Virus genome (UHGV): UHGV-0134932
DNA from: a virus
Length of the DNA stretch: 49,858 bases
Strand: one strand, 5' to 3'
Of this stretch, positions 5,980 to 19,176 are shown one piece after another (positions within the stretch are counted from its first letter, which is position 1; the number at the start of each line of letters is the position of its first letter). The notes beneath the pieces are model-generated. The model searched no databases and was not told where the DNA came from. It saw only the letters and a program-made list of their open reading frames with translations. Made by a program: the position numbers and the translations under genes.

Positions 5980-5996
5980 ACAATTTATTAGAGCAA
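5980..5996. promoter_or_regulatory. C1 operator (Op51-like) controlling the c4/icd/ant unit
   Basis: cAATTTATTAGAGCAAa, 15/17 match. Confidence 0.75.
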
Positions 5997-6000
5997 ATAT

Positions 6001-15288: not shown

Positions 15289-18200
15289 ATGACTCATCAG
15301 ACACACACCATTGCTGAATCCAATAACTTTATCGTTCTTGATAAGTACATCAAAGCTGAGCAAACAGGCGACAGCTATCAGAGCGAATCGGACCTGGAAC
15401 GTGAACTGATTCAGGACCTACAAAATCAGGGCTATGAATTTATAGCCGTAAAATCTCAGTCAGCGATGCTGGCCAATGCTCGGGAACAGCTTCAGAGCCT
15501 CAATGGTGTGGTGTTTAATGACAGCGAGTGGCGGCGTTTCACGGAGCAGTATCTGGACAACCCGAGCGATGGCATTCTGGATAAGACCCGTAAAATCCAT
15601 ATCGACTATATCTGCGACTTTATTTTTGACGACGGGCGTCTTGAGAACATCTATCTGATCGATAAAAAGAATCTCATGCGCAACAAAGTGCAGATTATCC
15701 AGCAGTTTGAACAGGCAGGTTCTCACGCTAACCGTTATGACGTAACTATCCTGGTTAATGGCTTACCACTGGTACAAATCGAACTGAAAAAGCGCGGCGT
15801 GGCGATTCGTGAGGCTTTCAACCAGATACATCGTTACAGTAAAGAGAGTTTTAACAGCGAAAATTCTCTGTTTAAGTATCTGCAACTGTTTGTCATTTCC
15901 AACGGTACCGATACCCGTTATTTTGCCAACACAACAAAGCGCGATAAAAACAGTTTTGACTTCACCATGAACTGGGCGAAATCAGACAACACGCTGATTA
16001 AAGACCTCAAAGATTTTACCGCTACCTTTTTCCAGAAACATACTCTGCTGAATGTTCTGGTGAACTACAGCGTGTTTGACAGTAGTCAGACGCTACTGGT
16101 GATGCGACCGTACCAGATTGCAGCTACCGAACGAATTTTATGGAAAATCAACAGCTCCTATAAAGCGAAAAACTGGTCTAACCCCGAAAGCGGTGGCTTT
16201 ATCTGGCACACCACTGGTTCCGGTAAAACACTGACCAGCTTTAAAGCCGCGCGTCTGGCAACAGAACTGGACTTTATTGATAAAGTCTTCTTCGTGGTCG
16301 ACAGGAAAGACCTCGATTACCAGACCATGAAGGAATATCAGCGTTTTTCGCCAGATAGTGTTAACGGCTCGGAAAATACAGCAGGTCTTAAACGAAATCT
16401 GGATAAGGACGATAACAAAATTATCGTCACCACTATTCAGAAACTTAATAACCTGATGAAAGCAGAAAGCGACCTGCCTGTATACAATCAGCAAGTGGTG
16501 TTTATATTTGATGAATGTCACCGCAGCCAGTTTGGAGAAGCACAGAAAAACCTGAAGAAGAAATTCAAACGCTATTATCAGTTTGGTTTTACCGGCACAC
16601 CTATTTTCCCGGAAAACGCCTTAGGCTCAGAAACGACCGCCAGCGTATTTGGCCGTGAATTGCATTCATATGTTATTACCGATGCGATTCGTGATGAAAA
16701 AGTGCTTAAATTCAAGGTGGACTACAACGATGTGCGGCCACAGTTTAAGTCTTTAGAGACAGAAACTGACGAGAAAAAACTGAGTGCGGCTGAAAATCAG
16801 CAGGCGTTCCTTCATCCCATGCGTATTCAGGAAATTACGCAATATATCCTGAATAACTTCCGCCAGAAAACCCACCGTACTTTCCCTGGCTCCAAAGGTT
16901 TTAATGCCATGCTGGCAGTGAGCAGCGTGGATGCCGCGAAAGCCTATTACGCGACGTTTAAACGGTTACAAGAGGAAGCCGCTTATAAATCTGCTACCTA
17001 TAAACCACTACGTGTTGCGACAATCTTCTCCTTTGCCGCTAATGAAGAACAAAATGCCATTGGTGAAATTTCCGATGAAACTTTTGATACCAGCGCAATG
17101 GACAGCAGTGCTAAAGAGTTTCTCGACGCTGCAATTCGTGAATATAACAGCTATTTTAAAACTAACTTCAGTACCGACAGTAACGGTTTTCAGAACTACT
17201 ATCGTGATTTAGCCCAGCGGGTTAAAAATCAGGATATCGATCTGTTAATTGTCGTGGGGATGTTTTTAACTGGCTTCGATGCTCCAACATTGAACACGCT
17301 ATTCGTCGATAAAAACCTGCGTTTTCACGGCTTGATGCAGGCATTTTCCCGCACCAACCGTATTTATGATGCAACTAAAACCTTCGGTAATATCGTCACT
17401 TTCCGGGATCTGGAACGCTCAACTATTGATGCCATAACGCTGTTTGGTGACAAAAACACCAAAAATGTGGTTTTAGAAAAGAGTTATGCAGAGTATATGG
17501 AAGGCTTTACTGATGCTGCCACTGGTGAAGCTAAGCGCGGCTTTATGGCAGTAGTTTCAGAACTGGAACAACGGTTCCCTGACCCTACCAGTATTGAAAG
17601 TGAAAAAGAGAAGAAAGACTTCGTTAAACTGTTTGGTGAATACCTGCGTGCCGAGAACATCCTGCAAAACTATGATGAATTTGCCACGCTGAAAGCCCTG
17701 CAACAAATCGATCTTAGCGATCCTGTTGCGGTAGAAAAATTCAAAGAAGAACATTATGTGGATGATGAAAAGTTCGCTGAATTGCAAACGATTCGTCTCC
17801 CTGCTGAACGCAAGATTCAGGATTATCGTTCTGCCTATAACGATATTCGTGACTGGCAGCGCCGCGAGAAAGAAGCTGATAAAAAAGAAAAATCAACCAC
17901 TGACTGGGATGACGTGGTTTTTGAGGTCGATTTGCTGAAGTCTCAGGAAATAAACCTGGATTATATCCTTGGACTGATTTTCGAACACAACAGACAAAAT
18001 AAAGGCAAGGGCGAAATGATCGAAGAGGTCAAACGCTTAATTCGTTCAAGCCTGGGGAACCGGGCGAAAGAGGGCCTGGTGGTCGATTTTATTCAGCAAA
18101 CGAACCTGGATGATTTACCAGACAAAGCCAGTATCATTGAGGCATTCTTTACGTTTGCTCAACGCGAACAGCAACGTGAAGCAGAAGCATTGATAAAAGA

Positions 18201-18405
18201 AGAAAATCTCAATGAAGATGCAGCAAAACGCTATATTCGCACGTCTTTAAAACGCGAATACGCCACCGAAAATGGCACAGAATTAAACGAAACATTACCA
18301 AAACTTAGTCCGTTGAATCCGCAATATAAAACGAAAAAACAGGCAGTTTTCCAGAAAATCGTCTCGTTTATTGAGAAGTTTAAAGGCGTAGGCGGAAAAA
18401 TATAG
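15289..18405 (+). CDS. hsdR: Type I restriction endonuclease/translocase subunit HsdR
   Basis: 1038-aa protein with PD-(D/E)xK-like N-terminal region, SF2 helicase motifs (TGSGKT, DECH) and C-terminal helical domain. Confidence 0.95.
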
Positions 18406-18484
18406 CCCAATTCGTGTTTTTCTTGCGGGTTCTTAATTAAACCCGCAAGAGCTCGTGGGGTTCCAAATGGCTAATATACTCCCC

Positions 18485-18571
18485 TTACCCATGCGCGACG
18501 ATGCCGCCAAAAGTGATAGAGAACAGCCAGAAATAGATCGCGGCCATAATGATTTTGAATGCCGTGTTCAT
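18485..18571 (-). CDS. Candidate 28-aa hydrophobic peptide (MNTAFKIIMAAIYFWLFSITFGGIVAHG)
   Basis: Short ORF with GGAG RBS, 5' hairpin (18601-18620) and a C1 operator about 90 bp upstream; below the ORF-track length cutoff. Confidence 0.3.
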   Translation of the reverse strand: MNTAFKIIMAAIYFWLFSITFGGIVAHG

Positions 18572-18653
18572 ATTTTCAGCTCCTGTGATTGACTGGATAC
18601 ATGCCGCGCCTTGCGGCATGTTTTTATTTTCACTTTCTCTGTTTTAAAAATCA

Positions 18654-18670
18654 ATATTTATTAGAGCAAT
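18654..18670. promoter_or_regulatory. C1 operator
   Basis: atatttattagagcaat, 16/17 match. Confidence 0.75.
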
Positions 18671-19176
18671 TATTGTTGATGGAGAAGCGCGTTTTCATAC
18701 TCCCTGACCATTAACGTAAGTACGCCGTGCCTCCTGAAAACACGCGCCACTTCAATCTTATCTTCCAGCGCGAACGCGATTTTACTTAGACCAATTTTCT
18801 TAAGGAGATCAATCTTTGCTGGGCCGTCATTTCTGTCATCGGTGGCAGGACGCATAGATAGCAAAGGCTCAGCCCCGTTTGTTACGTACTTCCGCAGCCA
18901 GGCTCGTGTTTTATCCCTTGCGATCTCACAGCGCCCGGTTACAAACCAGACCGTGTAAACGTTAAATAACTGGCGCACAATATCAATAACTGGAGTTATG
19001 GGAGTATCAGTGTCACAGGCGAGATTAAACTCGTTCCAGTCCTTTGTTAATGCACCTTTACCTGGTGGCGGAAGCAAATGCAGTCTGTCTTCAGTTGCCT
19101 CTGATATTGTTCCATCAATATCGACTATGACGATATACGGACGTTCCTGGTGTGCGTGTTTATTGAAAATACTCAA
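18670..19176 (-). CDS. HAD-superfamily phosphatase-like protein
   Basis: N-terminal DxDGT motif (IVIVDIDGTIS) characteristic of HAD phosphatases; 168 aa. Confidence 0.6.
   Translation of the reverse strand: MSIFNKHAHQERPYIVIVDIDGTISEATEDRLHLLPPPGKGALTKDWNEFNLACDTDTPITPVIDIVRQLFNVYTVWFVTGRCEIARDKTRAWLRKYVTNGAEPLLSMRPATDDRNDGPAKIDLLKKIGLSKIAFALEDKIEVARVFRRHGVLTLMVREYENALLHQQ

Follow-up and report, generated by a model that had tools for sequence, protein, structure and literature searches.

What, if anything, is encoded in the C1-controlled leader that borders the restriction genes of a P1-like phage-plasmid? In the UHGV virus genome UHGV-0134932, all 49,858 nucleotides of which make up the window analysed here, a preliminary description had drawn attention to a minus-strand open reading frame (ORF) of 28 hydrophobic codons, downstream of a C1 operator and placed between hsdR on the plus strand and the HAD phosphatase gene pap on the minus strand. 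Two identities had been offered for it, a type I toxin-like peptide or a small membrane protein under repressor control. The window represents a P1-like phage-plasmid, 97–99% identical to P1, P7, SJ46 and hundreds of Escherichia coli and Salmonella plasmids. Judged from sequence comparison, the small ORF probably codes for protein and opens the C1-repressed Op88 (OpmgT/Op(hea)) early operon as its first cistron; its product would be a 28-residue inner-membrane peptide with a single helix. The second of the two identities is thus retained, on the strength of the operator, the conserved translation signals and reading frame, and coding-type substitutions, and the toxin-like one is not.

All the elements first described at this locus are present. 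Reading the minus strand, the pap stop codon (18670) is followed by the operator, an A-rich stretch, a stem-loop (18621–18599; 18601–18620 had been given, i.e. within 2 nt), a Shine-Dalgarno (SD) sequence (AGGAG, previously noted as GGAG), the ATG at 18571 and 28 codons. Beyond the TAA (18487–18485) lie a second hairpin (18450–18421) and the stop codon of the convergent hsdR gene (18405). Feature coordinates are collected in Table 1.

The operator coincides with the 'monovalent C1-controlled operator OpmgT; former Op88' of the P1 record (AF234172), which is named Op(hea) in P7. Sites resembling the C1 operator with two or fewer mismatches occur eight times in the window, with none expected from 100 shuffles. 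The single departure from the consensus is at position 16, A instead of C; because exactly this variant recurs at 37813–37829 of the window, and in two distant relatives, Cronobacter phage JK004 and the element L139, we suggest that it is a functional C1 site. Besides the site at 37813–37829, operator-like sequences are found at 2769–2785, 2852–2868, 5981–5997, 24420–24436, 34280–34296 and 34291–34307, the last two forming an overlapping inverted pair (34280–34307). When the sigma-70 promoters predicted for P1 were placed on the window by a fixed offset (L001 coordinate + 15980), the operator overlapped the −35 boxes of both P1pmgT and P2pmgT. A −35 element, TTGATT or TTGTTT, was kept in all lineages compared.

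The signals for translation are equally constant. The block CAATCAC(A/C/T)GGAGC...AATATG was invariant across five lineages. The stable 5′ hairpin ends 15 nt ahead of the SD sequence, which is exposed in the predicted fold: it takes part in a weak local stem of five pairs in the minimum free energy (MFE) structure and is unpaired in the centroid. Public records, including that of SJ46 and many automated annotations, list a 44-aa 'membrane protein' or 'hypothetical protein' that begins at ATG 18619. We rejected this start, which lies within the hairpin, has no SD sequence and is not possible in distant relatives such as JK004. As both JK004 and L139 can start only at the SD-proximal ATG, the P1-type product is expected to be 28 aa, not 44.

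Direct protein searches with the P1-type peptide returned only copies that were at least 93% identical, and it took synteny with pap to arrive at the distant relatives, which belong to JK004 and three metagenomic lineages. In JK004, whose Pap is 73% identical, a small-ORF module directly follows the pap stop codon and consists of the identical operator, a hairpin of other sequence, CAATCAATCACCGGAGCCAATATG, and a 53-aa ORF (MHLIFKLAITAFYAWMLTVVITSFKPDANMK...) whose stop codon overlaps the start of the next gene (ATGA). Three further 53-aa forms (L136–L138) are 66–98% identical to the JK004 protein, and L139, an element without pap, has an intermediate form of 48 aa (MNTAFKLAMAAFYFWIFCIAFNGLVKAAPT...). 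Pairwise BLASTP of the window peptide against the JK004 protein gave E = 8e-4 with an alignment from residue 1. We then searched with the JK004 protein and subsequently, against 1.84 billion representatives, with a profile of the family; these searches matched only related P1-like lineages, and the profile retrieved P1-type and long forms together. All relatives share the operator, the −35 element, the 5′ hairpin, the SD sequence, the ATG and the small ORF, with a stop codon that abuts or overlaps the next start. The module is retained in JK004, L136–L138 and L139 though pap falls to 73% identity or is missing. In L139 (1572–3147) the operator, hairpin and small ORF directly follow pmgS; the presence of the module without pap shows that it is more conserved than its upstream neighbour.

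Comparison between these lineages yielded a substitution pattern that looks coding. The nucleotides diverge by ∼40–60%, while frame, start, SD sequence and hydrophobic composition persist. Length is constant at exactly 53 codons among the 53-aa forms, whose dN/dS is 0.22–0.39. Over the first 25 codons, window and L139 have 10 identical codons, 7 synonymous differences and 8 conservative replacements; their differences fall 7/3/14 on codon positions 1/2/3 (dN 0.22, dS saturated), and both alternative frames contain stops. Against the JK004-type sequences, second codon positions again vary least (7–8 versus 15–20). Since operator, SD sequence, ATG, frame and hydrophobicity are kept amid heavily diverged flanks, the feature is more than chance. 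The same observations speak against a non-coding leader, in which the ORF would be fortuitous and the block would act as a 5′ untranslated region (UTR) or would anchor recombination at the margin of a variable region. Such a leader would agree with the position of the block, which adjoins variable region 8 of P1-like phage-plasmids (PMC9603915), with the precise recombination breakpoint at its end, and with the flat codon-position profile and UTR-like diversity seen in the P1 clade (both below). It leaves unexplained why frame, start, SD sequence and hydrophobicity survive such divergence, why third positions vary most and second positions least with the other frames closed, and why one lineage holds its length at 53 codons; we regard it as quite improbable.

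As to the product, mean Kyte-Doolittle hydropathy over residues 3–25 is 1.73 for the window peptide and 1.57–1.83 for its relatives, and AlphaFold models residues 2–23 of a 53-aa relative as a helix (pLDDT 85–89). Together these predictions indicate that the family has one membrane helix. Its members generally join a conserved membrane helix at the N terminus to a hydrophilic, lineage-specific tail (23–30 residues), and the tail is lost in the P1 type. Homology between the P1-type peptide and the 48-aa form ends at about codon 25; the 28-aa peptide therefore appears to be a shortened, tail-less member of a 48–53-aa family.

The truncation introduces the serious rival to a functional membrane peptide, namely that the 48–53-aa ancestor was functional and the 28-aa peptide is an inert remnant. 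Its translation would then matter at most in cis, through coupling to the cistron behind it or through prevention of Rho termination in the leader, and it would have no role in the window. Several results weigh on this side and against our reading. The tail, missing here, is the best-conserved part of the protein in the 53-aa lineage, and the 28-aa peptide may accordingly be functionally degenerate. Searches of Pfam, NCBIfam and PHROGs for small-protein or toxin families, made with the 28-, 44- and 53-aa forms, gave no significant match; the best sub-significant ones were two PHROGs, one of unknown function (E = 0.16) and another (E = 0.044), and YxzE (14.5 bits, cut-off 40). We gathered 116 copies of the small ORF from IMG/VR, GTDB and assembly databases and analysed polymorphism in 97 full-length rows (74 haplotypes), with pap as a coding control. 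Segregating sites at codon positions 1/2/3 numbered 5/6/7 in the small ORF and 28/15/71 in pap, and synonymous to non-synonymous changes were 9:10 and 74:55 respectively. Radical replacements (G22D, G23D, L16Q and G28R) occur within the clade, and the small ORF, at 0.21 per site, is just as diverse as the untranslated stretch next to it, between hairpin and ATG. Ribosome-profiling and proteomic data sets for the leader were looked for, and none came up. Natural alleles include loss of the stop codon, frameshifts, a 12-nt deletion and insertion of a 113-bp IS5-derived miniature inverted-repeat transposable element (MITE). In addition, pmgT, pmgU and pmgV of P1 are non-essential by CRISPRi (PMC10695390). 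The remnant hypothesis accounts for the missing codon periodicity and the radical changes, for the end of homology near codon 25, for MITE-disrupted and frameshifted alleles, for five junction alleles (below) that destroy the stop codon and add 9–37 unrelated residues, and for the stop codon of P1 and P7 being embedded in the SD sequence of the next gene.

Other observations do not fit a decayed or purely cis-acting ORF. It is intact at an unchanged 28 codons in 109 of the 116 copies, among them hsd-type loci without a coupling partner, and the remaining seven are read-through forms. Non-synonymous variants in the helix core (codons 1–19) are all rare, with one or two copies each. Hydrophobicity is retained across lineages, which an ORF acting only in cis would not need. 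Furthermore, given the youth of the clade, decay would not be expected either way. Taking both sides together, we judge the degenerate or cis-only remnant to be unlikely but worth keeping in view, and continue to favour a gene for a membrane peptide.

The intactness of the ORF in close relatives, proposed at the outset as a check on its coding nature, carries no such information within the clade. A promoterless, start-less 95-bp relic (18470–18564, the hsd tail plus codons 3–28) is present in ∼280 mostly conjugative F-type plasmids and is 98.9% identical to the window (plasmid hits H86–H104); it probably corresponds to the R124-type remnant mentioned in the P1 record as lying 3′ of hsdR. Because this relic is as conserved as the ORF and the clade is young, conservation in the P1 clade is uninformative on coding, which removes a potential argument for our reading. 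Within-clade dN/dS was rejected as a coding test for the same reasons and because the first within-clade sample had been ascertainment-biased by the search pattern. The MITE allele is exemplified by L140 (2556–2668), where the 113-bp element, with terminal repeats GGAAGGTGCGAATAAG, sits in codon 19 of the small ORF. An IS5-derived element breaks the ORF in three contigs of hsd-type plasmids and so provides a natural knock-out. Variants broken at codon 18 (P0027 and P0028) were considered as a second hotspot and dismissed, as P0028/L140 is an ordinary MITE insertion with a CTAT target duplication.

The hairpin ahead of the SD sequence bears on the toxin interpretation, by which a membrane-damaging peptide would be encoded by an mRNA that a plus-strand antisense RNA ending at 18599–18621 neutralises. 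On the minus strand this element is the 5′-terminal hairpin of the Op88 transcript. On the plus strand its 10-pair stem is followed by TTTTATTTTC (to 18631), which creates an intrinsic-terminator-like site 3′ of hsdR, the only one that a terminator scan found between hsdR and pap. A hairpin of other sequence occupies the same position in JK004, L136, L137 and L139 (compensatory pairs, 5/8), which shows that it is conserved as a structure. The T-run of the opposite strand, absent from these four relatives, is specific to the P1 type, and the terminator look is hence not the conserved function of the hairpin. Transcripts of hsdR would most likely end at 18599–18631 and would then possess a ∼220-nt 3′ UTR fully antisense to the small ORF.

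The size of the peptide (28 aa), its hydrophobicity, a plus-strand terminator just upstream of the SD sequence at which an antisense transcript could end, and the antisense orientation that hsdR read-through would have in the window are all features expected of a type I module. However, a consensus scan found no plus-strand promoter in 18250–18850 (a weak promoter could escape such a scan), the T-run of the terminator is not conserved, the SD sequence is not sequestered, and the gene is repressor-controlled and heads an operon with stop–start overlap. Neither a toxin family (Pfam, NCBIfam, PHROGs) nor an Rfam family above threshold was matched; on both strands Rfam gave only sub-threshold, terminator-driven matches, to GcvB (19.8 bits versus 42) and isrK (11.4 versus 50). 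A plus-strand CATAAT in codons 8–10 was rejected by eye as an antisense promoter, having no −35 element and not being conserved. The natural read-through, frameshift and IS alleles also argue for dropping the toxin proposal, though as knock-outs they neither show nor exclude toxicity. In sum, a type I toxin–antitoxin module at this locus is highly improbable.

The DNA 3′ of the stop codon falls into two main classes among the 116 copies. In class A (∼88 loci, including P1, P7 and SJ46) it reads TAAGGGGGATGCATGAAAGG, and the stop codon is embedded in the SD sequence of the next gene, pmgT or upf86.8, whose ATG is 9 nt further on; the P1/P7 junction TAAGGGGGATGCATG comprises stop, SD and start. 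The stop and start also overlap in JK004 (ATGA) and in L139 (TGATG). The gene so coupled in the JK004 and L139 lineages (L135 3245–3559; L139 3147–3464) specifies a protein of 104–105 aa, for which PHROG 142 'Ren-like exclusion protein' is a match (E = 2.5e-9, L139) and TrmB/winged-helix families are weak ones. In class B (∼17 loci, including the window) the stop codon is followed by TAAGGGGAGTATATT and then by the tail of a type IC hsd cassette in inverted orientation. The P1 homology of the window stops at 18481, with 98% identity from that position onward, and the window has no coupled cistron: its stop codon is followed by the cassette tail and the convergent hsdR gene. In the window, an inverted type IC hsd cassette has taken the place of the pmgT–humD cistrons and has left the small ORF orphaned and convergent with hsdR. 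This arrangement was reportedly described for type IC hsd loci by Tyndall and co-workers in 1997. The P1 record (AF234172) describes this stretch as 96–98% identical to DNA downstream of hsdR in EcoDXXI and R124/3, and the title of the 1997 paper agrees with this. A different cargo and a different junction are seen in L082 (ORF start at 664, coding orientation), where AT-rich DNA takes over behind codon 19 of the small ORF and leads to an ORF of > 1,200 aa (MSMLRLNKTYKQQRFRYS...); a join of this kind is also present in the proteins P0007 and P0020.

We propose the following course of events. In a lysogen, C1 would occupy the operator and thereby cover the promoter −35, with repression taken from the P1 annotation of this operator. 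Inactivation of C1 would allow transcription to start at ∼18619–18622, at the base of the hairpin, as judged from the predicted promoters. The mRNA would begin with the stable stem-loop. A hairpin at the 5′ end would stabilise an mRNA, as is known for 5′ stem-loops and RNase E, and a comparable role is conceivable here. The exposed AGGAG and the ATG, both invariant across lineages, would drive translation of a peptide that would insert into the inner membrane. In the ancestral and the P1/P7 layout, the geometry suggests that ribosomes terminating on the small ORF re-initiate on the next cistron and are so delivered to the cargo. In the window, the small ORF would be a monocistronic orphan, its 5′ hairpin would double as the likely hsdR terminator, and the Op88 transcript would pass the non-terminating hairpin 18421–18450 into hsdR in antisense orientation. 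If we had to guess at a function, we would name that of a small modulator that is embedded in the membrane and produced soon after induction, and that contributes secondarily, in cis, to the expression of downstream cargo.

The end of the small ORF is also a recurrent breakpoint. Nine right-hand sequences (class A, class B, L063, L116, L119, L120, L121, L122 and L132) join directly behind ...CATGGGTA, i.e. at the TA of the stop codon. The seven rarer junctions arose by separate deletions from class A parents. Their right endpoints differ and lie inside genes, and the losses amount to e.g. 394, 739 or 774 nt or to everything up to humD. For six of these deletions, all but L120, the parental sequence has TA just before the right endpoint (2 bp of microhomology, no more), and all four bases occur after the junction TA. 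The L063-type junction is found in five complete plasmids and the L116 type in 21 contigs, which identifies both as real lineages. Five of the nine junctions (L116, L119, L120, L121 and L122) destroy the stop codon and extend the small ORF by 9–37 residues, and for this reason selection for an intact ORF was rejected as the cause of the precision. Where alleles change the last ten codons of the ORF, the stop TA is the sole position at which cargo is joined; the only other junctions are the cargo join after codon 19 (L082) and the IS5-MITE insertion.

A fixed site that is joined through a shared dinucleotide to many pseudo-sites resembles the signature of a serine recombinase or of a transposase with a TA target. 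We tentatively consider that the stop TA (18487–18486) is a site-specific breakage or recombination point that marks the left border of the pmgT–humD region, where an enzyme with 2-bp TA crossover chemistry joins it to TA dinucleotides in the cargo and so trims or exchanges the genes 3′ of the small ORF; as it stands, this proposal is doubtful. No matching recognition sequence and no recombinase nearby were found for the breakpoint. By eye, there was no support for Cin cix-like half-sites (no AAACC), for loxP or XerCD/dif (only 7/11 in one arm and no second arm) or for integron attI (no shared right-hand core), and EcoP1I/EcoP15I sites 25–27 bp away were absent. No IS was present at the site in any sampled locus, and a nuclease or recombinase encoded next to it was discounted, as pmgT/upf86.8 match only phrog_874, of unknown function. 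The pentamer GATGC recurs 6–11 nt beyond the crossover TA at three of the six TA-type partner sites, those in the parents of L121, L132 and L122, and is also seen in the right arm of the native site (TAAGGGGGATGCA). The parental partner sites of L121 and L132 share the 9-mer CGATGATGC; this may be short imperfect homology or a recognition element.

Little needs to be added on the surroundings. The stretch of the window that holds hsdR is annotated as HsdR in matching plasmids, and the same 1038-aa gene in L128 has HSDR_N, ResIII and EcoR124_C domains. The hairpin between the convergent stop codons has no T-run after the stem on either strand and was not called by the terminator scan; a T5 run precedes its stem on the plus strand. 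In P1 the leader between Op88 and pmgT is ∼180 nt long and the small ORF is unannotated, and neither the P1 nor the P7 reference annotation (AF234172, AF503408) has a gene between the operator and pmgT/upf86.8. The region from pmgT to humD is one of eight variable regions known in P1-like phage-plasmids (PMC9603915).

Table 1. Features of the small-ORF locus in the window (coordinates of the 49,858-nt sequence).
Feature	Position	Strand	Basis
Small ORF, 28 codons plus stop, hydrophobic peptide MNTAFKIIMAAIYFWLFSITFGGIVAHG	ATG 18571 to TAA 18487–18485	minus	sequence
C1 operator ATTGCTCTAATAAATAT, abutting the pap stop codon	18654–18670	minus	16/17 versus consensus ATTGCTCTAATAAATTT
Predicted sigma-70 promoter P1pmgT	−35 TTGATT 18654–18649, −10 GAAAAT 18631–18626	minus	prediction in AF234172
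Predicted sigma-70 promoter P2pmgT	−35 18669–18664, −10 18646–18641	minus	prediction in AF234172
Stem-loop, 9–10 bp	18599–18621	both	terminator scan and fold (MFE and centroid)
SD sequence AGGAG, 8 nt before the ATG	18580–18584	minus	read from sequence
TA of the small-ORF stop codon, recurrent recombination/deletion breakpoint	18486–18487	minus	junction comparison
TAAGGGG, last bases common to P1/P7, apparent relic of the translational-coupling junction	18481–18487	minus	alignment with P1
12-bp hairpin between the convergent stop codons of small ORF and hsdR, in the hsd cassette tail	18421–18450	both	folds, both strands
hsdR, 1038 aa, type IC/EcoR124-like, convergent with the small ORF	15289–18405	plus	ORF list
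pap, HAD-type polynucleotide 3′-phosphatase (PF25109 HAD_PNKP), conserved upstream backbone gene	18670–19176	minus	ORF list, family match

The closest known system is the P1 Op88/OpmgT pmgT–pmgU–pmgV operon (the 'hea' operon of P7), with the same operator, predicted promoters and leader; it differs in that the window has the operon body replaced by the inverted hsd cassette, and the P1 and P7 records list no leader gene. Small single-pass membrane proteins of < 50 aa, such as AcrZ, MgtS, MgrB, KdpF and YohP, are similar in their size, single hydrophobic helix and strong SD sequence and in being missed by standard gene callers. They show no sequence similarity to the small ORF, which in contrast is borne by a phage-plasmid, controlled by a repressor and first in an early operon. 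Likeness to the type I toxins Ibs, Ldr, TisB, ShoB and Hok lies in a short, very hydrophobic peptide, whereas here neither a dedicated antisense promoter nor a translation-blocking fold was found, and the gene belongs to an operon with coupling geometry and a protein repressor. With translationally coupled upstream cistrons or leader ORFs of phage operons it shares, in relatives, a stop codon that overlaps the next SD sequence or start; unlike these, it has a hydrophobic helix conserved at the protein level, and in the window no downstream cistron is left. The preliminary description had missed the place of the ORF in the leader of the Op88/pmgT ('hea') operon, the loss of the downstream cistrons to an inverted hsd cassette, and the truncation of the 28-aa form from 48–53 aa.

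Collectively, this points to an overlooked gene of an ordinary kind, from a family absent from Pfam, NCBIfam and PHROGs, of which the copy in the window is truncated and orphaned. Few phages are annotated as well as P1, but its reference record leaves the interval from Op88 to pmgT without a gene; what is new is a conserved small membrane-protein gene at this position, with homologues in other P1-like lineages and a start codon that is now fixed. In itself the gene adds modestly to what is catalogued of small phage proteins. It sits at the edge of a cargo hotspot in which hundreds of phage-plasmids from clinical E. coli and Salmonella carry restriction systems and other accessory genes. Together with its promoter, operator and hairpin it has the look of a constant expression unit ahead of cargo that can be exchanged. 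If the precise breakpoint that recurs at its stop codon is enzymatic, it could explain the turnover of this cargo region.

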